This document shows, piece after piece, positions 18,718-53,386 of a stretch of 54,698 bases of DNA. A model generated the notes under the pieces. The model ran no database searches. It worked only from the letters and a program-made list of their open reading frames with translations, and was not told the DNA's origin. This DNA is from a virus (lineage: Duplodnaviria > Caudoviricetes): IMG/VR virus record IMGVR_UViG_3300046714_000572, positions 1 to 54,698 of that record. The stretch is one strand, 5' to 3'. Made by a program: the position numbers and the translations under genes. Every line of letters starts with the position of its first letter. Position 1 is the first letter of the stretch.

Positions 18718-20433
18718 CTACTGCGCTGCGGGGTCGCTCGCCTGCCGGTCGTGCGCGCTGCCGAGCAGTCCCTGGTTCGGGTCGCGCCCAGAGCCGGTGA
18801 TCGGCTGGCGCATGCTCGCCATCGTGTTGGCCGCTGCCGGCGTCATGCCGTCGAGCAGCGTCTTGAAGCCGTTGCCAGGCGTGACGTGGATCGGCATCCC
18901 GTTCTCGTCCGTCGGCCCGCCGCCCCCGGCTCCGCCCGCGGCCATCGCCGCGTTCGGGTCCGGCGCGGCCACCGAGGGGCCGGTCGTGGTCTGCGACGCC
19001 GTCGGGCCGAGCGCGCCCGCGGCCTTCGCGATCGGCGACGTCGGAGCCGGTGCTCCGGCCGCCTGAGGCCCGGGCAGCGCCGGCGAGCCAGGAGCGCCCG
19101 CGGGCGCGACCGGCGGCTTCGCCTTGACCGAGCCGCCGAGGAACTGCTCGGCCCTGAGCTTCTCCTTCGAGCCGTCCGGCTGCGCGAACTCCGTCTCCTT
19201 CGCGCCCAGCGTGCGCGCGAAGATCGTGCTGAAGTTCCGCTGCGCCGGACCGATCTTGCGCTTCTGGATCAGCATGAGCGCGTTCGGCCCCTCGTTCACC
19301 GCGCCGATCTTCGCCGGCAGAGCCACGTTCGCCAGCATAGGCGGGACGCCGTGCGCCGTGGTGATGAGCATCGCGAGCGTCATCGACTTGTCGCTGAAGC
19401 CGTCCTTGCCGCCGTCGTCCATCGCGAGGCGCTCGATCTGGACGGAGGTGTCCTGCGTCGAGCTGGGGATCTGCACCGCGCACGTCTTGTGGGAGTTCCC
19501 CGAGCCCTGGCTCGCGCGCAGCATGTTCTCGAACTTCTCCCACGTCTTCGTGGTGGCGTTCGGGCTGATGAGGAAGGCGATGAACTCGGGCACCGCGCGG
19601 TTGAAGTAGAAGTCGAACTCGTGCTGCGTCATGCACTGCACCAGCTCGATCGACGGCACCGCGGACATGTAGTCGGGAAAGCCGTACCAACGCGAGCGGT
19701 TGCGCGACTGCCGGATGTGGATGACCTCCGAGTTGGTGATCGTGCCGCTCGGCGAGCTGCGCCGCGAGCGCTGCGCGTCGTTCGCGTTCACCGTGTTCGG
19801 GTCGACGCCGCCGTCGGTCTGCACGCCGAAGCGCTTCTTCAGCTCCGCGAGGTCTCCCCACTTCGCCATCACGGTCGTCATGCCGGAGGCCGTCTCGCCC
19901 TCGACGACGTAGTGGTACAGCTCGGAGTTGTTCTCCTCCTCGACCTCGACGCGACACTGGCGGGACTCGATGTGTCCGAGGCCCGTCACCAGGTTCGGGT
20001 TCGACTCGTCGTTGCGCACCACCTCGAGGAAGCACTCGCCGGTCTCCCAGTAGTCGTCGGCCATCGCGTCGAGCGTGTCCTGCCAGGAGAACTGGCACAG
20101 CGGGTCGAGGATCTCGTGGATCGTCTCGTCGCGGTGGCCGAGGCCCACCGTCGCCGACGCCTTCGCGTCGATGCACGCGGCGTGCGTGGTGTTCGCGTCG
20201 CGCAGCTCGCGCGCCACGTCCTTGTCGATCAGCGGCGTGCGCGCGCCGACGGCGATGCCCTGGTTCGTCTTGTCCTTCGGGTCGACCGGCTTCACCGCCT
20301 GCCCGTCGGCGGTGGACTTGCGCAGCAGGCGCCAGGTGAGGCCCTCGGCGCCGTAGATGTCCCGCGTCTTCCTCTCCGACCGGATGAGCTTGAAGTCGGG
20401 CTGGGCGGGGGCGGACGGCGTCTCGTCGCTCAT
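18718..20433 (-). CDS. portal protein (PBSX/P2 Q-like) with Pro/Ala/Gly-rich C-terminal extension
   Basis: NTTHAACIDAKA, WETGECFLEV, EVIHI...YGFPDY, AHGVPPML. Confidence 0.88.
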   Translation of the reverse strand: MSDETPSAPAQPDFKLIRSERKTRDIYGAEGLTWRLLRKSTADGQAVKPVDPKDKTNQGIAVGARTPLIDKDVARELRDANTTHAACIDAKASATVGLGHRDETIHEILDPLCQFSWQDTLDAMADDYWETGECFLEVVRNDESNPNLVTGLGHIESRQCRVEVEEENNSELYHYVVEGETASGMTTVMAKWGDLAELKKRFGVQTDGGVDPNTVNANDAQRSRRSSPSGTITNSEVIHIRQSRNRSRWYGFPDYMSAVPSIELVQCMTQHEFDFYFNRAVPEFIAFLISPNATTKTWEKFENMLRASQGSGNSHKTCAVQIPSSTQDTSVQIERLAMDDGGKDGFSDKSMTLAMLITTAHGVPPMLANVALPAKIGAVNEGPNALMLIQKRKIGPAQRNFSTIFARTLGAKETEFAQPDGSKEKLRAEQFLGGSVKAKPPVAPAGAPGSPALPGPQAAGAPAPTSPIAKAAGALGPTASQTTTGPSVAAPDPNAAMAAGGAGGGGPTDENGMPIHVTPGNGFKTLLDGMTPAAANTMASMRQPITGSGRDPNQGLLGSAHDRQASDPAAQ

Positions 20434-25511: not shown

Positions 25512-28259
25512 GTGCAGTCCGTCATCCAGACCGTCCGCGCCACCGCTAATACCGGCGCGACGACTCAGGACGTCACGGTCTCTGGGTTCGGTACCGTCGT
25601 CGCGTGCTTCGGCAAGATCAGCCTGGCGACGGCCGACAACACGAACGTCGCGCACGGCTTCATCTCGGTCGGCATCTGGGACGGCACGAATACGCGCGGG
25701 AAGTCGACGTTCTCCGAGAACAACCGCACTGCCGTCACCGACACGAATCAGATGAAGCGCACCGACCGCTTCTTCATCGTGATGGCCGCGGCCGGCGTGG
25801 TCACGCGCTACGTCACCCTGTCGGCCGTCACCAACGGGGTGAAGCTGAGCTGGTTCGACTCCGCCGGCACGCCGACAGCACCGGGCGTGGCGTACAAGCT
25901 CGACCTGACGTTCGTCGGCGGGTCCGGAGCGCTGGCGGCCATCGTGGACGTCGCCGGGGCGATCACCTCTCGGGTCATCAGCTCGCTCAGCTTCCAGAGC
26001 GACTCCCTCGTCTGCCTCGGGCCGGGCGTGTTCGGTACGGCTGCTGCCGCGGCGCCGGGCCAGATGATCCTCGGGTTCGCCACGCGCGCGCCGTCGATCT
26101 CCCAGTGCTCGCTGAACTGGACGGACACGGACAACGTGTCGACGTCCGCCGCGATCTCGCTGCTGTCGGCGACGTCGGTCGCGGTGTTGACCGGCGCGAG
26201 CCAGGACAACGCGCGCGTCAGCGCCTTCTCGTCGACAGGCTTCACGTTCACGAACGACGTCCAGAACAACGCCTTCCCCGACTTCGCCGTCCTGGCACTT
26301 CAGCTCCCTGGCCTGTCGGTCCTCGCCGAGGTGATCTCCTCGCCGACCGGGACAGGCGTGCAGTCCTACACGAACCTCGGCATGCGCGGCCAGGCCGGCA
26401 TCCTGGCGATCTCCGGCGCGAGCGCGGTCGACACCGTCACGAACGACGACAAGGCGAGCACGTTCGCGCTGAGCTTCCTCGGAACGCCGACCGGCACGCC
26501 CGTCGAGAACGTCACGCACGTCCGCTCGAAGGACGCCGTCGTCATCAGCGGCCCGAGCCCGACGATCGCAGGCGCCATCGCCGACGCCAAGTTCGTGCGC
26601 CTGCACAACGGCGGCAACACCGCGCTGCTGGTCGCCAACTGGAACGCCTGGCAGGCGAGCGGGGTCGACGTCAACTGGACCACGGTCGACGGCACCGCGC
26701 GCAAGATCGCCGCGCTGTGGTTCAGCGCCGAGGTCGTGCAGCCCAGCGGCATCGCCTCCGAGGAGGCGTTCGGCTCGGCCACCATCGCCGCTACGATCGC
26801 GGTCAGCCCGAGCGGCATCGCCAGCGCCGAGGCCTTCGGCACGCCGACTCTGGCGGCCACCGTCACGCTGTTCCCCGGCGGCATCGCCAGCGACGAGGCC
26901 TTCGGCACGCCGACGCTCGCCCCAGGGGCGGTCGCGATCAGCCCGAGCGGGATCGCCAGCGCCGAGGCCCTCGGGAACCCCACGTTGTCTCCCGGCGCAG
27001 TCACGCTGTCGCCCGGCGGAATTGCCAGCGACGAGGCCTTCGGCACTCCGACTCTGGCGGCCGGCGAGGTCGTCGTGTCCCCGAGCGGCGTCGCCAGCGA
27101 CGAGGCCTTCGGCACGCCGACGCTCGCGGCCACCGCCACCGTCGACCTGAATGGCGAGGGCATCGCAAGCGCCGAGGCCTTCGGAACGCCGATGGTCGTC
27201 ACCGGCGCCGACATCTTCCCCAGTGGCATCGACAGCGAGGAAGCCTTCGGCACGCCCGACGTGCTGGCGCAGCCCGTGTTCCTCTCGCCGACCAGCATCG
27301 CGAGCGCCGAGGCCTTCGGCGACCCGCTGCTGAGCCAGGAGCAGCTCGTTCTGCCGGCGAGCATCGACAGCGAGGAGACCTTCGGCACGCCGTCGCTCTT
27401 CACAGGCCTGACGATCCTGCCCGACGGGATCGTCAGCGAGGAGGCCGTCGGCACGCCCGACGTGCTGGCTGGCGCGGTAGCGATCAGCCCGAGCGGCATC
27501 GCGAGCGCCGAGGCCCTCGGGAACCCCACGTTGTCCCCCGGCGCGGTCACGCTGTCGCCCGGCGGAATTGCCAGCGACGAGGCCTTCGGCCTGCCGGCGA
27601 TCTCGCCCGGCGCGCTCGTCCTCCTGGTCGACGCCATCGCCAGCGACGAGGCCTTCGGCACGCCCACGCTGCTCCAGGCCGGCGCGCAGATCATCGACCT
27701 CGACACCCAGGGCATCGCCTCGGGCGAGGCCTTCGGAACGCCGCTCGTCCTGTCCGATCAGCAGCTTGTCCAGCCCAGCGGCATCGCTAGCGGCGAGGCC
27801 TTCGGCCTGCCGTTCCTGCGCGGAGGATACATCCCCGTGACTCTGAAGAAGAAGGTCCACGACGCGCTCTGCCAGGCGGCGGAGCTGGGTACGTTCATCG
27901 AGGCGACCTACGACTCCGACGCCTGCGAGCTGGAGCAGGGCCTACAGGTCCGCCCTGGCTCGATCGAGGTGAACGAGCTGGACGCCAACTACGCCGTCAC
28001 CAGTCGCTACGGGCGCAAGTTCGCGCTCGATCCGACCGCGTGGAACTGGTTGCTCATCCTCCAGTTCAACGAAGAAGTCATCTGCGAGCCGTTCGTGCGG
28101 AGGCTGCTCGGAGATCCCATCTGTATTCCGCGCGGACAAGACGACCGTCAGGTTACCCTGAAGCTCGTCGACACCAAGTACGAGCACCCTCCTCGCGAAG
28201 GTGCGTCGAACGGGACGAAAGCATTCTTCCGCATCCAAGCGGAGCTGAGTCCTCGGTAA
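25512..28259 (+). CDS. virion fibre-like protein: beta-rich N-domain, 16 repeats, putative tail-terminator C-domain
   Basis: AAGGAG RBS; PSGIASxEAFGTP repeats; ~140-aa C-terminal domain directly before the tail tube gene. Confidence 0.75.
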   Translation: MQSVIQTVRATANTGATTQDVTVSGFGTVVACFGKISLATADNTNVAHGFISVGIWDGTNTRGKSTFSENNRTAVTDTNQMKRTDRFFIVMAAAGVVTRYVTLSAVTNGVKLSWFDSAGTPTAPGVAYKLDLTFVGGSGALAAIVDVAGAITSRVISSLSFQSDSLVCLGPGVFGTAAAAAPGQMILGFATRAPSISQCSLNWTDTDNVSTSAAISLLSATSVAVLTGASQDNARVSAFSSTGFTFTNDVQNNAFPDFAVLALQLPGLSVLAEVISSPTGTGVQSYTNLGMRGQAGILAISGASAVDTVTNDDKASTFALSFLGTPTGTPVENVTHVRSKDAVVISGPSPTIAGAIADAKFVRLHNGGNTALLVANWNAWQASGVDVNWTTVDGTARKIAALWFSAEVVQPSGIASEEAFGSATIAATIAVSPSGIASAEAFGTPTLAATVTLFPGGIASDEAFGTPTLAPGAVAISPSGIASAEALGNPTLSPGAVTLSPGGIASDEAFGTPTLAAGEVVVSPSGVASDEAFGTPTLAATATVDLNGEGIASAEAFGTPMVVTGADIFPSGIDSEEAFGTPDVLAQPVFLSPTSIASAEAFGDPLLSQEQLVLPASIDSEETFGTPSLFTGLTILPDGIVSEEAVGTPDVLAGAVAISPSGIASAEALGNPTLSPGAVTLSPGGIASDEAFGLPAISPGALVLLVDAIASDEAFGTPTLLQAGAQIIDLDTQGIASGEAFGTPLVLSDQQLVQPSGIASGEAFGLPFLRGGYIPVTLKKKVHDALCQAAELGTFIEATYDSDACELEQGLQVRPGSIEVNELDANYAVTSRYGRKFALDPTAWNWLLILQFNEEVICEPFVRRLLGDPICIPRGQDDRQVTLKLVDTKYEHPPREGASNGTKAFFRIQAELSPR
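26733..27818 (+). repeat. 16 coding repeats of about 22-25 aa, consensus PSGIASxEAFGTPTL
   Basis: Counted in the translation; one 40-aa block occurs twice (26925-27044, 27471-27590). Confidence 0.9.
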
Positions 28260-43140: not shown

Positions 43141-43605
43141 TCAGTTCGTGCTCGGCCCCGTCGGCGGCGGGATCATCTCGGGCGGCGGCTCGACGACAGG
43201 CTGCGCTCCTCGGAACGGCAGCGTCGCACGGTAGGCGGTCGAGAACGCCACGCCCCAGATGTCGTCGTGGGAGTTGATCTGGCTCGCGCCCCACACCATG
43301 CAGTGAGCCCACTCGTGGATGAGCGTGTCGAGGATCCCGCTCATCGACTGCCGGGCCTCGATCTGGACGTCGTAGCCGTCCTGGGCCTTGCGAGTCAGCC
43401 CGAGGTACGGACCCTCGATGATGCAGAGTCGGATGTGGACAGAGCCGTTGACCGGCGCGTTCTGGGCGAGGCCTTCGACGCAGCGGACGAAGAGCGCCTG
43501 ATCGAAGCCGTCGGAGAACTGCTCCACGATCACCGCGGGGCGCGGGTAGAACAGCGCGCACGACGGCGCGAGGGCGAGGCAGGCCAGCAGCAGCAACTTC
43601 TTCAA
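43141..43605 (-). CDS. lipoprotein zinc metallopeptidase (SprT-like HExxH)
   Basis: TTG start with AGGAG; MKKLLLLACLALAPSC signal/lipobox; DTLIHEWAH...HDDIW. Confidence 0.75.
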   Translation of the reverse strand: MKKLLLLACLALAPSCALFYPRPAVIVEQFSDGFDQALFVRCVEGLAQNAPVNGSVHIRLCIIEGPYLGLTRKAQDGYDVQIEARQSMSGILDTLIHEWAHCMVWGASQINSHDDIWGVAFSTAYRATLPFRGAQPVVEPPPEMIPPPTGPSTN

Positions 43606-43793
43606 GGGGTCTTCTCCTGTGCCCGCTGCGCGCGGGCTCGAGCGCCGTCTCCCTTCGAGACGACTGGGGTGAGTAGCGTCTCGAGGCAGAACACGAGCCG
43701 GCACTTGTCGCAGTAGCCGCGCTGGAACTTCTGGTCCTTGAGGCCGTACGTGTGGGTGACGCGGATCGTTCCGCCGCAGCTCTTGTGCTTCAT
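43602..43793 (-). CDS. zinc-ribbon protein (Ogr/Delta-like), candidate late regulator
   Basis: HKSC...CDKC..VF; GGAGG RBS; coupled to terL stop. Confidence 0.6.
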   Translation of the reverse strand: MKHKSCGGTIRVTHTYGLKDQKFQRGYCDKCRLVFCLETLLTPVVSKGDGARARAQRAQEKTP

Positions 43794-45268
43794 CTGCTCC
43801 TCCGCACCTTCGAGCCCAGCTTGTAGGGCCGCCGGTTCATCCCGGCGATCTTGCCCTCGCGGCCGATGCGGCTGTAGAAGGACATGACGACCGCGTCGGC
43901 GCGGTCGGGCGACTCGTCGATCTCGGTGCGGTCGCGCCACTCGTCCTTCGTCTCGACCTTCAGCCTGCCCTTGCGGTCGGTGTAGTACTGGCGCGTCGAG
44001 AGCTGCTTGATGAGGCGCGGGTCGTTCGGGATGTGGACGATGTGCTCGACGACGAGGTTCCTGAAGTTCCACCACGCCTCGCTGTAGGCGTCGGCGTACA
44101 TCGAGCTGTCGCCCGCGACGCCCTGCGTGTGGAACTCGAACACCTGCTTGCCGCCCTCGTGGAACGAGTGCACGATGCCCTGGCCCATGCCGCCCGCGTC
44201 GGGGATGTACCAGCAGTCCTCGTTCTTCCAGCCCGCGTCGTACTGGAGGCGGAAGGCGTAGTCGGTCACCTCGCGCGGGTCGCACTTCACGAACACCTTG
44301 TAGTCGACGACCGCGAGGCCGCTGCGCCGCACGACGACCGACTCGTCGCTGCCGTAGCGCGCGTAGTCGATGCCGAACGCGCGGCTGATCGGCAGGATGT
44401 CCGTGATCGTCGCGCACCCGAACATCTGAGTCTTCGTGCACGCGATCAGGTCATCGATCGCCATCAGCGCGTTCGGGTCGCTGCGCGGGAACTCCCCGAG
44501 CACGCGCACGCGATATACGTCGCTGTCGCGGCCGTACTCCAGCTCGAGCGCCTTGTTGCGGCTGGGGTGCACGATGTGCGGGTAGTCGCGCGCGGTGTCC
44601 TCGGCGTTCCAGCCGAGCGTGTGCCACTGGTCCGCCTGCGTGGTGAAGAACTCGTGGAAGCCGCAGTCGGTGGTGTTCGGGTTGCCGATCGCGAGGAAGA
44701 GCGCGTCGGGGTTCGACAGCGTGCCCTTGATCGTCTCGATGATCGGCCGCGCGACGCCGGACGCCTCGTCGGCGATGAACGTCAGGCGCTTCTCGTGGAT
44801 CCCCTGGAGGTTCTGCGGGCGCGAGGCCGTCGCGGAGCGGATCCCCCAGATCGGGTTCTTGTTGATCTCCATCTTGGTGCCGTAGCACTCGACGAAGCCC
44901 TGGAGGAACGGGTGCGCGTCCTTCATTATGCGCCGCCCCTCGTCGATGAACTGCTTGCACTGCCGCATGTTCGGCGCCGTGACCACGCAGAGCGCGTCCG
45001 GGTAGCGGATGCAGCGCCACATCGCGACCGCGAAGCTGATCGCGGTCTTCCCCGGCCCCTGCCCCGAGCGCACGGCGATGCGCTTGCGCCGCTTGCCGAC
45101 CGGGAGCTGCGACTCGAGCTGCACGACGTCGAGGAGCTGCTTCTGCTGCCACGTCGGGCCGGTCCCGGGGTACTCCTGCCCGAAGTTGAGGCCCTCCTGG
45201 ACGAAGAAGTTGATGTCCTCGCGCCAGCGCTCGTACAGCGGCGTGAACTTTCGCTCGAACGCGGTCAT
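43790..45268 (-). CDS. terL: terminase large subunit
   Basis: Walker A SGQGPGKT, Walker B FIADEASG, IGNP, nuclease GIDYARYGSD and SPDRADA. Confidence 0.95.
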   Translation of the reverse strand: MTAFERKFTPLYERWREDINFFVQEGLNFGQEYPGTGPTWQQKQLLDVVQLESQLPVGKRRKRIAVRSGQGPGKTAISFAVAMWRCIRYPDALCVVTAPNMRQCKQFIDEGRRIMKDAHPFLQGFVECYGTKMEINKNPIWGIRSATASRPQNLQGIHEKRLTFIADEASGVARPIIETIKGTLSNPDALFLAIGNPNTTDCGFHEFFTTQADQWHTLGWNAEDTARDYPHIVHPSRNKALELEYGRDSDVYRVRVLGEFPRSDPNALMAIDDLIACTKTQMFGCATITDILPISRAFGIDYARYGSDESVVVRRSGLAVVDYKVFVKCDPREVTDYAFRLQYDAGWKNEDCWYIPDAGGMGQGIVHSFHEGGKQVFEFHTQGVAGDSSMYADAYSEAWWNFRNLVVEHIVHIPNDPRLIKQLSTRQYYTDRKGRLKVETKDEWRDRTEIDESPDRADAVVMSFYSRIGREGKIAGMNRRPYKLGSKVRRSR

Positions 45269-45441
45269 TTTCCCTGGCCGACGACCCGATCGACGCGATC
45301 GGCCATCAGCGAGGCGACTTCCGCGTGTCCGCGGGCCTCGGACGCGGATTTTTGGCTCTTCAGGGCCAGAATCGCGGCGACGACGGCCGCCAAGATGGCC
45401 GGAATGTTCACGAGGAGCGCGATCAGGACGTTTTCGTTCAT
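45265..45441 (-). CDS. 58-aa single-TM membrane protein (MNENVLIALLVNIPAILAAVVAAILAL...)
   Basis: Read from sequence; ATGA overlap with the terL start. Confidence 0.6.
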   Translation of the reverse strand: MNENVLIALLVNIPAILAAVVAAILALKSQKSASEARGHAEVASLMADRVDRVVGQGK

Positions 45442-45448
45442 TGTTTGA

Positions 45449-45991
45449 CTACCAGACGACGATTCGGGTGTGTTTCGGGTGCGTGGAGTGCTCCTCGAGC
45501 GCCTTGCAGGACTCGACGAAGGCCGGATCCGAGCCGCGGGCGCCGAAGACGACGCTCACGATGGCCTGCGGAGCCCTGTGCTGGACGATGTTCGCCACGT
45601 TCGCCATCATCCGCAGCTCCCAGATGGCCTGGCCGCTGAATCGGAGCACGTTCCAGCGCGGAAAACCCGTCACCGAGGCGAGCTGCGGGTTGATCCGCTG
45701 CGTCACGGACTCGAGGAACTCCATGATCTTGCCGTCTTGTCCGCGTCCCGAGGCCAGCATGATGCCCGAGGAGCACGGGACCGACAGCACGCGCCACATC
45801 GCGTAGACGAGGCACGCCCGGCCCATCTCGTTCCGGTCGTCGCCGACCGTCTGGTAGAAGGAGGGGTTCGTGCCGAGCACCCCGAGGACCTCCCGCTGCC
45901 GCGGCGTGGGCCGCAGCTCGAGCTGGTCGCACATCGTCAGGGGCGTCTTCAAGGCGTCTAGCCTCTCACGCAGGGCTGCGTCGGTCAGCAT
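45449..45991 (-). CDS. degenerate paralog of the terminase ATPase domain
   Basis: Manual near-gapless alignment to TerL: PT..Q..L, AMWR....P, A....Q, P.L, IW..R, A.G......E..K; Walker A and B residues absent. Confidence 0.75.
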   Translation of the reverse strand: MLTDAALRERLDALKTPLTMCDQLELRPTPRQREVLGVLGTNPSFYQTVGDDRNEMGRACLVYAMWRVLSVPCSSGIMLASGRGQDGKIMEFLESVTQRINPQLASVTGFPRWNVLRFSGQAIWELRMMANVANIVQHRAPQAIVSVVFGARGSDPAFVESCKALEEHSTHPKHTRIVVW

Positions 45992-46247
45992 GGAGCCTCT
46001 TGCACTCCTCGAGGTCGTCCTCGAGCGTGTTCACCTTGATCGCGAGGCGCGTGTTCGTCGCGTGCATCTCGTCGATCTTGTCCTCCAGCTCGCGGATGCG
46101 CCCGACGAGCGTGTCGCGGTAGTCGCTCTTCTCCAGGCGCTTGTTCTCGAGCCACACCGCGAGGAGCTTGGCGACGCCGGCACCGGCCAGCAGGGTGACT
46201 CCGCTCTTGAGCCAGGGCGGGAGTTCGTTGATGTCTGCGAAGATCAT
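45966..46247 (-). CDS. TM plus coiled-coil protein (holin/spanin-like architecture)
   Basis: GVTLLAGAGVAKLLAVWL followed by heptad-rich segment. Confidence 0.65.
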   Translation of the reverse strand: MIFADINELPPWLKSGVTLLAGAGVAKLLAVWLENKRLEKSDYRDTLVGRIRELEDKIDEMHATNTRLAIKVNTLEDDLEECKRLHADRRSPA

Positions 46248-46294
46248 GTGAGGGGTTCTCGGGGAGGGGCGGCCGGAGGCCGCTCCAAAAAAGC

Positions 46295-46423
46295 CTACTC
46301 GAAGTGGGCGTTCACGTCCTCGGGAAAGACGGGACACGCCTGGTCCTCGGACTCGTCCTCCTCGAGGTCGAAGACGTCCTCCTCGGGGTCCATGCCGTCG
46401 ATGCCGTGGCGGTTGGGCCTCAT
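46295..46423 (-). CDS. 42-aa acidic peptide
   Basis: GGAGG RBS; ATGA overlap; 15 of 42 residues Asp/Glu. Confidence 0.55.
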   Translation of the reverse strand: MRPNRHGIDGMDPEEDVFDLEEDESEDQACPVFPEDVNAHFE

Positions 46424-46902
46424 CGCGGGATCCTCCCCCCGAGCAGCCCGCGGGCCGTCGTCCTCGCGGTGCCGAGCGCGCTCTTGGTCACGGACTTCGC
46501 GGTCTCCCACGCCGACCCGAAGATCGCCGGGTAGTGGCCCCACGCGCGGAAGAGCGCGTACAGCAGCGCGCCGAGCAGCAGGCCCTTCCAGTCGAGCCAG
46601 CTCCCGCCCGAGCCGGCGACGGGGTTCCCGTGCGCGTCCACCTGCACCACTGGGCGCGGCGCCATCAGCGCGGCCCAGAGGGCGCCGGTGCCGGCGGCGA
46701 GCATCGCGCCGAGGAAGCCGATCGGGTAGAAGAGCCACGAGAGGCCCCCGACCACCGCGCCACCGCCGAGCTGGATGACGCGCTCACCCAGGTACTTCAG
46801 GCCCTGGCCGATCGCGAGGCAGCTCGGCAGCGCCAGGAGCAGGACCGTCCACGCCGCGAGCACCGCGCTCGTCCGCCTCAGCAGCCAACCTCGCACGCTC
46901 AT
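46420..46902 (-). CDS. multi-pass membrane protein or lipoprotein
   Basis: AAGGAAGG RBS; LLLALPSC; several hydrophobic segments. Confidence 0.7.
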   Translation of the reverse strand: MSVRGWLLRRTSAVLAAWTVLLLALPSCLAIGQGLKYLGERVIQLGGGAVVGGLSWLFYPIGFLGAMLAAGTGALWAALMAPRPVVQVDAHGNPVAGSGGSWLDWKGLLLGALLYALFRAWGHYPAIFGSAWETAKSVTKSALGTARTTARGLLGGRIPR

Positions 46903-47099
46903 CGAATACCTTCCTTCGCTCCGCCGCGCGCTCGGCACGCGAGCGCTCCCTGTCGGGGCAGTGGCCTCAACCCTTCCACCTGATGTCGCCCATCGTACTT
47001 CGATCCTCGGTTCTTGCGCCACGTCAGCCCCTCGCTCCGGTGGTGCGTGTACCGCGGGTCCATCTTGAACTTCTTGAGACTGCCGTCGTGGGTGCGCAT
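46899..47099 (-). CDS. possible small basic protein (MRTHDGSLKK...)
   Basis: Stop overlaps next start; a competing short ORF at 47024-47146 makes the call uncertain. Confidence 0.3.
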   Translation of the reverse strand: MRTHDGSLKKFKMDPRYTHHRSEGLTWRKNRGSKYDGRHQVEGLRPLPRQGALACRARGGAKEGIR

Positions 47100-47142: not shown

Positions 47143-48210
47143 TCATGAGTTCTCCCTCTCGAACTCCGCGATCACCGCGGGGTCCTCGTCGTCCTCGCCG
47201 GTCGGCTCGAGCCTCGCCGGCAGCGCGGTGTACGTGCTCGGCTCGGCGCGCCCCGCGGTCGGCACTACCGTCGCCTGGACCTCCAGCATCTTCCTGTCCT
47301 GGCGCTGCGCGACGCCCGCGATGATCCCGGCGAAGGCGCGGCCGAGGTCCTCGGGGTCGGTGCGCGTCAGGCCCTGCACGCGGGCCAGCTCCTTCAGCGC
47401 GCGCAGCTCCTTGTCCGTGTTCATCTCCTCCTTCGCGCGGGCGACGAGGTCCTTGAGCTGCGCGACCATCAGCGCGCGGTCCTCCTCCACACTGCTCGAG
47501 CCCATCCGCATCGCGTCCGCGCGGGCCAGGCGGATCAGGCCCACGGCCTCCTTCCGCGCCAGGCCGTAGCGGTCGCGGAAGTGGTCGAGCGTCGGGCGCT
47601 CGCCGCACTCCAGGATCGAGCGGCCCGCCTCGTCGATCAGCATGTCCTCTAGGGCCAGCACCTGGCGCTCGGTCACGCCGGCGTGCACGCAGGTCCGATA
47701 GTCGAGCAGGCCGCGCAGGCCCGCGGCGCCACCCTCGGTGCGGGCGATCTTCAGCTCGTCGGCGAGCAGCGCCGCCACGCGGCACCAGGTGCGCGCCAGG
47801 TACAGCTCGGCCGGCGGGAGCAGCGCCACGCCGTCGCGGGCCAGGCGGTGCACCTCGGTCGCCTCGCCGAGGCGCACGAGCTGCTGCTGACTCGGGCTGA
47901 GCTTGGGCCTGGTCGGGAAGTGCCAGGGCGACTCGACCGCCTGGCCGTCGGCGTCCGTCGCGTGGTCCAGGGACTCGTCCTCCGCGCACAGCCCGAGCAC
48001 CAGGGCGATCGAGCGCGCCAGGCGCCAGCACACCATGATGCGCTGGGAGTGGTCCTCGGGCGCCGGCACCACGAGGTCGGGTCCGGGCGGCGCGAAGACG
48101 CGCTCGAGCGCGAAGCGCAGCTCCCCATCCACCAGCCGACGCGGAGCACCGGCGCTGAGGAAGGCCTCGAGCGCGGGCGTGGAGACGTCGACACGGTGCT
48201 GCTGGCTCAT
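47143..48210 (-). CDS. putative terminase small subunit with long N-terminal region
   Basis: First gene of the packaging operon; HTH-like RYGLARKEA..LI and ALKELARVQGL helices; acidic tail. Confidence 0.55.
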   Translation of the reverse strand: MSQQHRVDVSTPALEAFLSAGAPRRLVDGELRFALERVFAPPGPDLVVPAPEDHSQRIMVCWRLARSIALVLGLCAEDESLDHATDADGQAVESPWHFPTRPKLSPSQQQLVRLGEATEVHRLARDGVALLPPAELYLARTWCRVAALLADELKIARTEGGAAGLRGLLDYRTCVHAGVTERQVLALEDMLIDEAGRSILECGERPTLDHFRDRYGLARKEAVGLIRLARADAMRMGSSSVEEDRALMVAQLKDLVARAKEEMNTDKELRALKELARVQGLTRTDPEDLGRAFAGIIAGVAQRQDRKMLEVQATVVPTAGRAEPSTYTALPARLEPTGEDDEDPAVIAEFERENS

Positions 48211-48235
48211 CCGGGCGGGGTGTCCCGCAACTAGA

Positions 48236-48264
48236 AGAGTACGCCTGCCGATATGGCAGGGCAA
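48236..48264 (-). promoter_or_regulatory. promoter of the packaging operon with CTGCC-N5-GGCAG box in the spacer
   Basis: - strand TTGCCC-17 nt-TACTCT; box at 48245-48259. Confidence 0.65.
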
Positions 48265-48532
48265 GAGGAATCCCGGAATCTGCAACTGGGCGCGCTCGAG
48301 CCGGGTCCGCGGAGCACGCACGCGGCGTCGTCGACTTTCCGCACGACAACCTCTAGCCCCAGATTTTTCACCCCGGGTTTTTCTCCCGGAAAATACCCCG
48401 CGCGATATAAGGGGGTGCACTTGGCCCGCTCAGAATCTCGCACGTGAAGGAACGTTCATGAAATATATTCCCCACAAGCCCCCGGGCAGGCCCTAGAGGG
48501 GTTGTTTTGCGTATATGTATGGTAATAATAGC

Positions 48533-48567: not shown

Positions 48568-48927
48568 GTACCCCTACAGGTTGGGGGCTAACGGATACCT
48601 ACCACTATAAGGGCATTGTAATTTTACAATGTTAGCATCTCATTTTCGAGAGTGACATTGTAAAGTGCCTCTCTAACTCCTTTATCCACAGTGGCCAAGA
48701 ATTCGGTACTTTTTACAATAGCTCATTTCCAGGATGCCCCGGCACGTTCTCGGATTATGAACCCGGACACCATACTGATTCCAGGAATGGCCTCGGCGAT
48801 AGTGCCACGAGGGGTAAATCTAGTCGCGACCACAAGCGGTAGTGGGGGTAGGTAGGAATTTCACACAATGTAAAGGGTCACTTTCGGTGTTGCTATGCTG
48901 CGGGATAGCAGAAGTGGCTCTATTCCT

Positions 48928-51446: not shown

Positions 51447-51932
51447 ATGTCGACGCTGAAGAAATACGAGCACACCAATCTGGACGGATCGAAGGCGACC
51501 ATATACCTAGGGGCCGGCGCGCGCATCGGGGCCGGCGCGAGCATCGGGGCCGGCGCGAGCATCGGGGACTACGCGCGCATCGGGGACTACGCGCGCATCG
51601 GGGCCGGCGCGCGCATCGGGGCCGGCGCGAGCATCGGGGCCGGCGCGAGCATCGGGGACTACGCGCGCATCGGGGACTACGCGCGCATCGGGGCCGGCGC
51701 GAGCATCGGGGCCGGGCAGTCTCTCCACGGAAGTACCGGGAGCTACTACTGGGATGTATACCTCGCGAAGGGCGGGATACCGTTCCTGCGCTTCGGATGC
51801 GAGGGCCATCCGCTCGCGAAGTGGACGGAGTCCTTCCAGAAGTCGAAATGTGCGGAGCACGACTGCGACGCGGCGTCAGACTTGCTGCGGGTGGTGAGGG
51901 CTGCGCGCGCGTTCCTGAAGGGACTGAAGTAG
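51447..51932 (+). CDS. hexapeptide-repeat (left-handed beta-helix) protein
   Basis: IGAGAS/IGAGAR/IGDYAR repeats; C-terminal FGCEGH...W. Confidence 0.8.
   Translation: MSTLKKYEHTNLDGSKATIYLGAGARIGAGASIGAGASIGDYARIGDYARIGAGARIGAGASIGAGASIGDYARIGDYARIGAGASIGAGQSLHGSTGSYYWDVYLAKGGIPFLRFGCEGHPLAKWTESFQKSKCAEHDCDAASDLLRVVRAARAFLKGLK
51510..51716 (+). repeat. eleven 18-bp tandem units with a 90-bp higher-order duplication
   Basis: 51510-51599 is repeated at 51600-51689. Confidence 0.92.
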
Positions 51933-52579: not shown

Positions 52580-52779
52580 CGGACGCGCGCATAACGCACC
52601 TCGCGCGCTGGACGGACGCGCGGTACGTGCTACAGTCCCTCGGACTTGCGTCCGCTGACGGCAAGTCATGGGGATCGGTGAGAGTGCCCAACTCTGCGCT
52701 CACGGACGGCAGGCTGTGGGTGCGCTTCGTGGGTGGGCCGAGGGGCGGACAGACGCAGGGGTTCGTGGCCGATGGCTGA
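52576..52779 (+). CDS. hypothetical protein (MTDARITHL...)
   Basis: GGGGG RBS; GTGA overlap. Confidence 0.6.
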   Translation: MTDARITHLARWTDARYVLQSLGLASADGKSWGSVRVPNSALTDGRLWVRFVGGPRGGQTQGFVADG

Positions 52780-53386
52780 TCTGTCTAGCGACGAGCACGA
52801 GCGCGCGCACGCGGAGCTGTCATTCGCCAGCGCGGATTCGACCGCCTACCGACGCTTCCTTGAGCGCCTCGCGCGGCTGCCCGAGGTCGAGCGCGAGGCG
52901 GAGCGCGCGGCGCGCGACGCGGAGGTGGACTCGCTCACCGGACTCTACAACCGGCGCGGACTGGTCCGCCGGACGCGCAGGCACGGCGGCGCGAGTTGGT
53001 TCGTGTTCTGCGACCTCGACGGCTTCAAGCGCGCGCAGGACGCGAACCCCGGCCACCACGCCTACGGCGACGACGTCCTGCGCGAGTTCGCGCACTTCCT
53101 GCGCGAGGGGACTCGCGGCGCGGACGTGACGCTGGCGCGCGAGGGCGGGGACGAGTTCGTGGTGCGCGTGGACAGCCGGGCAGGCGCCCGTCGGGTGCGC
53201 GACCTCGTGCGCGCGTGGCGCAGCGCCGACGGCGCGGTGAGCGCAAGCGCCGGGCTAGGCGCCGACGTGGACGCGGCAGACTGCGCCTGCCACCTGAACA
53301 AGGAAGACAGGCGGGCCGCGATGCTGCCGACATTTACGGCGGCGTGGTTCGAGCTGAGGAAGCAACTTCAACGGAGGATGTGGTAA
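52772..53386 (+). CDS. GGDEF-domain diguanylate cyclase
   Basis: DSLTGLYNRRG, FCDLDGFK, H..GD.VL, REGGDEFVV, SASAG. Confidence 0.9.
   Translation: MADLSSDEHERAHAELSFASADSTAYRRFLERLARLPEVEREAERAARDAEVDSLTGLYNRRGLVRRTRRHGGASWFVFCDLDGFKRAQDANPGHHAYGDDVLREFAHFLREGTRGADVTLAREGGDEFVVRVDSRAGARRVRDLVRAWRSADGAVSASAGLGADVDAADCACHLNKEDRRAAMLPTFTAAWFELRKQLQRRMW

Follow-up and report, generated by a model that had tools for sequence, protein, structure and literature searches.

A conserved, catalytically dead paralogue of the terminase ATPase core encoded upstream of TerL in a phage genome

The gene upstream of TerL and its relation to the TerL ATPase core

We analysed a virus record of 54,698 nucleotides (nt) from a soil phage (IMGVR_UViG_3300046714_000572, Caudoviricetes; estimated completeness 98%, GC content about 68%), the whole of which is referred to below as the window, and in it an open reading frame (ORF) of 180 amino acids (aa) on the minus strand at positions 45449-45991. 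The ORF, a family profile and a structural model identify its product as a pseudo-ATPase that is paralogous to the Rossmann core in the ATPase domain of the large terminase subunit TerL. The gene lies upstream of that encoding the TerL of the same phage (492 aa, 43790-45268, minus strand), a gene of the catalytic parent type, in which the nuclease and both Walker motifs are intact, recognised through phrog_2 and tblastn. TerL matched phrog_2 ("terminase large subunit") at 4.3e-36 and was about 30% identical to the TerLs of phiCD27, CDKM9, B83 and others (tblastn; 249 matching phage records), and its residues G69, G71, G73, K74 and E168 were invariant across 57 relatives. An earlier note, made from the sequence of the window, had described the 180-aa ORF as intact, of normal codon usage and next to the gene for TerL. 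The ORF is indeed initiated by ATG, with an AAGAGG Shine-Dalgarno sequence 5 nt ahead, and the GC content at its third codon positions (GC3) is 0.93, like that of the neighbouring genes and typical for the genome. As to its place, the gene is located just upstream of TerL but is not strictly adjacent to it, a 58-aa ORF with one hydrophobic helix (45265-45441, minus strand) standing between the two, with its stop codon overlapping the TerL start (ATGA). No homologue of this 58-aa ORF was found among the 83 related loci searched, so that it is either specific to this genome or no gene. In relatives the pseudo-ATPase gene and TerL are directly adjacent, without the 58-aa ORF.

When the 180-aa protein was compared with TerL alone by BLASTP, the match was not significant (13.9 bits, E 5.1, 20/109 identities), and its register was that of an alignment made by hand (PTPRQ opposite PTWQQ, MWR opposite MWR). 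For comparison at the profile level we used an alignment of 70 family members free of any TerL (A2) and one of 57 TerLs (A3). The TerL-like proteins P0074 and P0077, the fragments P0008, P0044, P0066 and P0070, and P0076 were omitted from A2. P0076 (348 aa, with tandem repeats) was rejected as a family member, being a low-complexity false positive. Comparison of A2 with A3 by hhalign gave a probability of 99.1% and an E value of 8.1e-19 over 183 columns, family columns 4-190 corresponding to TerL 1-196. As controls, A2 against the unrelated family of p425, another protein of the window, scored 0.19% (E 0.32), and 31 of 35 ORFs located beside TerL in distant loci scored 1% or less. The same register was reproduced by MAFFT on a mixed set, without profiles. 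The hand alignment of the earlier note, which had matched the protein to the ATPase domain of the phage's own TerL, was thereby recovered in all its blocks by both programs (PTPRQREVL/PTWQQKQLL, AMWRVLSVP/AMWRCIRYP, IWELR/IWGIR and FGARGS...FVESCK/DEASGV...IIETIK). Both also placed EMG opposite the GKT of Walker A and FG opposite the DE of Walker B, as it had proposed. The statement that the protein stops where the ATPase domain ends had to be corrected: the chain ends sooner, at the strand before the GNPN of TerL (about TerL residue 196).

Among 1.84 billion proteins, the two weakest informative matches to the family profile were the full-length TerL P0077 (496 aa) at E 7.7e-4 and P0074 (199 aa, intact Walker A and Walker B) at E 1.7e-4. 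P0074 resembles both TerL and the dead family; it is either a TerL cut short where its contig ends or a stand-alone gene for an active ATPase domain.

The AlphaFold2 model built from A2 had a mean pLDDT of 94.2 and a pTM of 0.90. In this model a strand (residues 45-48), a loop and a helix (residues 55-70) occupy the place of the TerL Walker A, and a strand at residues 143-149 that of Walker B. A terminase ATPase fold was expected from Foldseek, and ranks 1-17 of the search against PDB were all large terminases (TMq 0.50-0.76), followed by DEAD-box helicases. Among the terminases matched were those of T4 (gp17), Sf6 (gp2), HK97, P74-26 and T7, and the PhiV-1 terminase of the Avs3 complex. The named matches in BFVD were large terminases or terminase-like proteins, bar three with generic labels (AAA domain, DEXDc, HNHc). 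In the ESM Atlas, the Atlas's own model of the protein gave 10 structure rows (TM 0.69-0.81). Eight of these were terminase-named, seven having a terminase Pfam where they align and one being called "terminase B"; the other two were labelled "hypothetical protein", one of them also carrying Terminase_6N. Profile similarity (hhalign) and structural similarity (Foldseek against PDB, BFVD and the Atlas) to terminase ATPases were thus both found.

The 180-aa protein shares with the N-terminal ATPase domain of its own and of window-type TerLs the N-terminal helices, the PT..Q motif, the strand-loop-helix unit, the helix with ..MWR, the strand with IW.[IL]R, and the Walker B strand with the helix that follows it. 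It differs in that identity is only about 14%, in that Walker A and B, GNPN, lid and nuclease are absent, and in that it is not basic. It has the same fold as the solved large terminases T4 gp17 (3cpe, 2o0j), Sf6 gp2 (4ife), HK97 TerL (6z6d) and the P74-26 ATPase domain (4zni, 4znk, 7ks4), with a Foldseek probability of 1.00, TMq of 0.50-0.76 over 140-198 aligned columns, and 8-15% identity. We conclude that the 180-aa protein and the N-terminal ATPase core of the TerL of this phage clade are homologous.

Residues lost, kept and gained

The Walker A motif of TerL (SGQGPGKT) is replaced in the 180-aa protein by the loop GDDRNEMG at residues 50-57 (45821-45844, minus strand), between the strand at 45-48 and the helix at 55-70. 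The pattern G/AxxxxGK[T/S] was not found, and no member of the 70 has Lys at the aligned column. At the columns of this pseudo-P-loop, the position of Asp51 is D or E in 42 of 70 members and that of Glu55 E or D in 45, and the following Arg58 is R or K in 60. The Walker B strand (TerL TFIADEAS) is replaced by residues 145-152, VSVVFGAR (45536-45559, minus strand), as placed by alignment and model. The column of the Walker B Asp is hydrophobic in all 70 members (L in 50, I in 8, F in 6, V in 4, M in 1 and A in 1), and that of the Glu holds G in 39, D in 17 and E in 4. The hhhhDE pattern was absent, a nearby D[DE] being kept in only four of the 70, all divergent members. The loss of catalysis claimed by the earlier note thus extends to the family, whose members are all predicted, from these columns, to be catalytically dead.

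Regions C-terminal to the core are missing as well. Neither the GNPN motif (motif III/C) nor the lid subdomain was found, the chain ending at the column before TerL G195-N198. Positions 50-202 of the TerL profile map to residues 32-195 of the P74-26 ATPase-domain chain, and the lid subdomain of P74-26 TerL, according to passages of a study of that protein, holds R228-R245 (bioRxiv 10.1101/080440). The family is therefore without the lid as well as the nuclease. A C-terminal RNase H-like nuclease was not found in the 180 aa, and 64 of the 66 database matches are 91-202 aa long.

Basic residues have also been lost. Among the 57 TerLs, position 113 is R in 55, and positions 102 and 150 are R or K in 56 and 54, respectively; in the family, the same columns are R or K in 7 (all R), 15 and 25 of the 70 members. 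The median isoelectric point (pI) is 6.8 for the family versus 9.3 for the first 200 residues of TerL, and 40 of the 70 members are near-neutral or acidic. The same passages on P74-26 TerL assign functions to R39 of the P-loop, a basic patch (R101, R102, R104, R128) and an arginine finger (R139), and state that basic residues of this kind grip DNA (bioRxiv 10.1101/080440). Set against P74-26 TerL as described there, the 180-aa family is missing the P-loop and the entire lid region, and most of the basic residues are not kept at the aligned positions.

What remains is the fold itself, together with the PT..Q motif in its N-terminal helices and, after the former P-loop, the helix that bears the ..LWR motif. 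Gln32 (codon 45896-45898, minus strand), which stands upstream of Walker A and opposite the invariant Gln42 in the PTWQQ of TerL, is Q in 65 of 70 members; it may correspond to an adenine-binding Q motif. Further residues kept or gained are Trp66 (67/70), Arg67, Trp124 and a family-specific FP.WN motif. The protein ends on Trp180, whose codon and the stop codon occupy 45449-45454 (minus strand). This column is W in 67 of 70 members, 60 of which terminate exactly on it. Unlike in TerL, Arg58, the FP.WN motif and the C-terminal Trp are conserved specifically in the 180-aa family.

These residues bear on whether the protein might still be an NTPase, or a nucleotide sensor, with a non-canonical site. 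The near-universal Gln32, opposite an invariant glutamine of TerL, and the DD or DE found at the Walker B place in four of 70 members would be in keeping with such a site. No member retains the P-loop lysine or a glycine-rich loop, however, and the acidic loop with Asp51 and Glu55 disfavours phosphate binding, and we consider retained nucleotide binding of this kind highly improbable.

Distribution, descent and selection

Eleven relatives at 44-68% identity were found in a collection of 5.8 billion proteins, and a profile of these relatives found 66 clusters at 50% identity among 1.84 billion proteins, 50 of them at E<=1e-10. None of the 70 members matched a terminase Pfam (Terminase_6N, TerL_ATPase and others) at E<=0.1. 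The family matched no TerL PHROG and no PHROG of known function, nothing in 50,697 phage records, and no PDB sequence. A pattern scan detected no prophage copy in 185,579 species genomes; the pattern scan from an alignment termed A1 gave one metagenome locus. In the literature searched, supplements aside, we came across no description of a terminase paralogue that is a pseudo-ATPase or pseudo-enzyme.

The genomic context was examined in 80 TerL-anchored IMG/VR loci. The family gene was found directly upstream of TerL in all 26 assessable loci with a TerL at least 61% identical to that of the window (L004-L028, L031). Two of these are cut by contig ends and several are near-duplicates, which leaves 20 distinct carrier TerLs, that of the window included. 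The gap from the stop codon of the family gene to the TerL start was 0-62 nt, mostly 7-8. When TerL was 47% identical or less, only L051, L075, L066 and L067 had a divergent relative in the slot (hhalign 36-90%), also without Walker A and B. A hidden Markov model (HMM) search, iterated over the small ORFs at these loci, brought in L066 and L067 and nothing further. Upstream sequence exceeded 2.5 kb in 49 loci, of which 19 carried a strong copy, four a weak one and 26 none.

The descent of the family was followed with a family HMM and a tree. The HMM, built without any TerL, scored the window TerL at 36.7 bits and the TerLs of ctjtQ328, phiM5, JUN5 and phiCD27 at 23.5, 12.8, 6.2 and 3.3 bits, the score dropping with growing TerL distance; a TerS scored -0.9. 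In an IQ-TREE quick search (66 rows, 201 columns, four outgroup TerLs), the family formed one group (SH-aLRT 100) and grouped with the window-type TerLs, apart from the four outgroups (SH-aLRT 100). The 180-aa protein thus appears to be an ancient copy that arose from a TerL of this phage lineage.

Selection was assessed by NG86 omega (the ratio dN/dS) in the five closest independent pairs. The values for the family versus TerL were 0.30 versus 0.12 (L008-L009), 0.40 versus 0.13 (L018-L020), 0.49 versus 0.34 (L001 and the window), 0.19 versus 0.07 (L009-L011) and 0.21 versus 0.11 (L020-L022), absolute values being rough because the extreme GC3, near 0.95, compresses dS. Over 290 retained pairs the median omega was 0.68 for the family versus 0.25 for TerL, about 2.7 times higher, and amino-acid change in the family was roughly threefold faster than in TerL. 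No indel was seen inside the gene in four soil or rhizosphere DNA runs, and the two listed strain differences that fall in it (45563, 45587) are both at synonymous third positions. The frame was intact in 25 of 26 close loci. In the remaining one (L024:3308-3984) the family gene is split into parts covering HMM positions 2-146 and 133-181, by a frameshift or a sequencing error. The earlier note had called the gene retained and had proposed dN/dS and synteny as checks. Both agree with retention, with purifying selection in the close pairs and the upstream slot kept in 26 of 26 close loci, and the pattern is not one of neutral decay and frameshifts. The gene is therefore judged, from these comparisons, to be under purifying selection.

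It follows from the same data that a functionless remnant of a tandem TerL duplication is barely credible. The loss of all catalytic motifs and the L024 copy in two frames are what such a remnant might show; on the other side stand 66 clusters of nearly constant length, the 60 of 70 members that end on the same Trp, omega below 0.5 in the close pairs, the intact frame in nearly all close loci and the confident fold.

The patchy occurrence of the gene within the clade and its roughly threefold faster amino-acid change are typical of conflict genes. They would suit a counter-defence role, the protein being a TerL look-alike that occupies or misleads Avs1-3 STAND receptors, or a shield for the ATPase face of TerL. 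According to passages of one study, Avs1-4 recognise TerL and portal folds through direct binding (PMC13581612), and one of the terminases that the model matches is the PhiV-1 chain of an Avs3 complex (8dgc_E, TMq 0.62). However, we found no link to any defence system, and a look-alike that binds Avs would be expected to trigger the sensor rather than block it. Translational coupling to TerL fits a stoichiometric TerL partner better. In the one paper on Avs and large terminase examined for this idea, "decoy" occurs only in connection with mass-spectrometry databases. We regard counter-defence as unlikely. An accessory, fast-evolving, dead copy of an oligomerising ATPase domain might also act as a dominant-negative poison subunit against the TerL of co-infecting related phages. 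The gene is probably co-transcribed and is tightly coupled with its own TerL, which would suffer first, and no immunity feature was found in carrier TerLs, so that we find this very unlikely.

Operon neighbours and proposed role

The 180-aa gene belongs to a putative leftward operon with the order p425, p200, p123, 180-aa gene, p58, TerL, p187, in which p58 is the 58-aa ORF described above. Two overlapping sigma-70-like promoter matches lie ahead of p425 (48615-48649, minus strand; consensus match only), and these promoter-like sites (48649-48615) may mark the start of the operon. p425, the first gene (47143-48420, conserved part 47143-48219, minus strand), is taken up below. p200 (46420-47022, minus strand) is a hydrophobic protein of the same operon with homologues in L001-L005 only. 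p123 (45966-46337, minus strand) is small, with a hydrophobic helix and a coiled coil, and the last 26 nt of its gene overlap the beginning of the pseudo-ATPase gene. Its homologues stand at the same place in 26 family-carrying loci (L001-L006, L008-L016, L018-L024, L026-L028 and L031). Downstream of TerL, p187 (43141-43704, minus strand) has a lipoprotein-like signal and an HExxH motif. Homologues of p187 are also found downstream of TerL in relatives, and in phiM5 a "putative peptidase" directly follows TerL. The HExxH motif of p187 and the arrangement in phiM5 suggest a conserved TerL-peptidase pairing.

The gene directly upstream of TerL is the classical slot of the small terminase subunit TerS, and the possibility was considered that an inactivated duplicate of a TerL domain took over DNA recognition and TerL activation, making the 180-aa protein the functional TerS. 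It is small, as TerS is, and its gene stands immediately upstream of TerL in 26 of 26 close loci, with the 58-aa ORF intervening in the window. No TerS family was detected by PHROGs in 36 window ORFs (several large structural ORFs lying outside the scan), by Pfam in 16 of those 36, or among 10 ORFs beside TerL in distant loci. Unlike TerS, however, the protein matches no TerS profile and has neither a DNA-binding N-terminal domain nor a TerS fold. Its fold is the TerL ATPase core, an additional-strand catalytic-E (ASCE) fold, and not a helix-turn-helix (HTH) with an oligomerisation core. The loss of the basic residues of TerL, together with the 40 of 70 members that are near-neutral or acidic, is poor equipment for DNA recognition. 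The gene is also missing in many relatives, namely in 26 of the 49 TerL loci with enough upstream sequence.

The unrelated p425, in contrast, accompanies TerL in carriers and non-carriers alike. The p425 family is found upstream of TerL at a distance of 3 nt to 3.7 kb, abutting it in L056, L064 and L065, and is kept across the whole TerL clade. The family is acidic (pI 5.1), and its members are about 300-360 aa long (window and loci L030-L083). No Pfam, PDB or named relatives of p425 were found; the Atlas gave a weak lead to HTH_Tnp_1_2/HTH_23 clusters (0.86-0.87). By its distribution p425 is the better candidate for the TerS-like or packaging partner of the clade. Because of this better candidate, and because many relatives lack the 180-aa gene, the 180-aa protein is probably not the TerS of the clade, and we consider that reading unlikely.

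Other features of the window may be recorded here. The portal gene (18718-20433, minus strand) and TerL (43790-45268, minus strand) are about 23 kb apart, with the intervening capsid and tail genes on the plus strand. TerL sits among small membrane and lysis-like genes, an unusual layout for a packaging module. A 217-aa ORF on the plus strand (52733-53386) carries a diguanylate-cyclase domain of the GGDEF type (Pfam 1.5e-13), matches several PHROGs of unknown function and would be a phage-encoded cyclic di-GMP enzyme. Another plus-strand ORF (51447-51932) encodes a 161-aa hexapeptide-repeat (left-handed beta-helix) protein through 11 near-perfect 18-nt tandem units (51492-51761). Inside the plus-strand ORF 25512-28259, which was matched by phrog_13352 in five stretches, the segment 26731-27806 encodes many repeats of 66-69 nt (22-23 aa) of a minor-tail-like protein. 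No terminal repeats of 40 nt or longer were found at the window ends.

The identity of the 180-aa protein is secure: it is a conserved and stand-alone paralogue of the ATPase core of TerL, and it is catalytically dead. As the catalytic residues are gone, it is probably a non-enzymatic helper or regulator of genome packaging. We favour the view that it is a non-catalytic, TerL-derived paralogue acting as an accessory terminase partner or regulator, and put the probability of this view as a whole at roughly 0.5. The protein would be made from the same leftward operon as TerL, would be unable to hydrolyse ATP and would no longer grip DNA. It would bind TerL through surfaces inherited from TerL-TerL or TerL-partner contacts and serve as an accessory non-enzymatic subunit, for example by keeping TerL inactive or monomeric until the motor assembles. 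Alternatively, it might form a bridge from TerL to another packaging protein. In either case it would be an accessory of some sublineages and not the universal small terminase of the clade.

A protein-protein role with TerL is proposed because the catalytic site and the DNA-gripping residues are lost, a free C-terminal Trp is conserved, and the gene is coupled stoichiometrically to that of TerL. Some of the findings fit such a role better than that of a second motor subunit gripping DNA or donating an arginine finger, and a motor, a DNA-recognition subunit or junk would fit worse. The clamp-loader subunits delta and delta' and the RAD51 paralogues are dead ATPase copies kept as structural or regulatory partners in cellular systems, and the 180-aa protein resembles them in concept. 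On the viral side, non-catalytic additional subunits that wrap TerL or act as its chaperone have a precedent in the herpesvirus proteins pUL33 and pUL28, of which pUL33 is "thought to function as a chaperone or assembly factor" (PMC9611059). Unlike the 180-aa protein, these two are not ATPase-derived, and they are unrelated to it in sequence and fold. In the literature searched, no non-catalytic ATPase paralogue has been described as a subunit of a viral packaging motor.

Several points weigh against the accessory-partner view. The packaging system as such can do without the gene, since 26 of 49 loci have no recognisable copy. No TerL column separates carriers from non-carriers, and hence there is no sign of TerL adapting to a partner. 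TerL position 100 (Ser versus Thr) was considered as a co-evolution signal and rejected, as at least five of 39 non-carriers also have Ser. The tree was obtained by a quick search, and the stem of the family in it is long (1.99). A tree with all TerLs of the clade in one group was not rejected by the approximately unbiased (AU) test (p 0.52), so that sister and nested positions of the family are not distinguished. Omega is inflated by a GC3 near 0.95, and distant pairs saturate at values near or above 1. One of the 26 close loci, L024, carries the gene in two frames. Finally, the functional half of the view is one that we infer from anatomy.

A more specific form of heteromeric packaging can be sketched, which we offer as a tentative idea. 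The dead ATPase core would dock on TerL through the inherited interface, and its acidic pseudo-P-loop, with Asp51 and Glu55 braced by Arg58, might mimic bound nucleotide, engage the trans-acting arginine of TerL and so gate assembly or firing of the ring; or else docking might hide the ATPase face of TerL from immune receptors.

Packaging ATPases have been treated as homomeric rings assisted by an unrelated small terminase, and a conserved dead paralogue of the motor domain would add a new player, a pseudo-enzyme acting as regulator, adaptor or shield. The predicted structure is confident enough for the design of binding and ATPase-modulation experiments, and the finding as a whole is of interest to specialists of packaging motors and of phage defence. 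A previously unannotated family of 66 clusters can now be recognised in the genomes of soil phages, the carriers probably being phages of Planctomycetota. If true, a gating or shielding role would make the 180-aa protein the first subunit of a viral genome-packaging motor to be described as a pseudo-enzyme.

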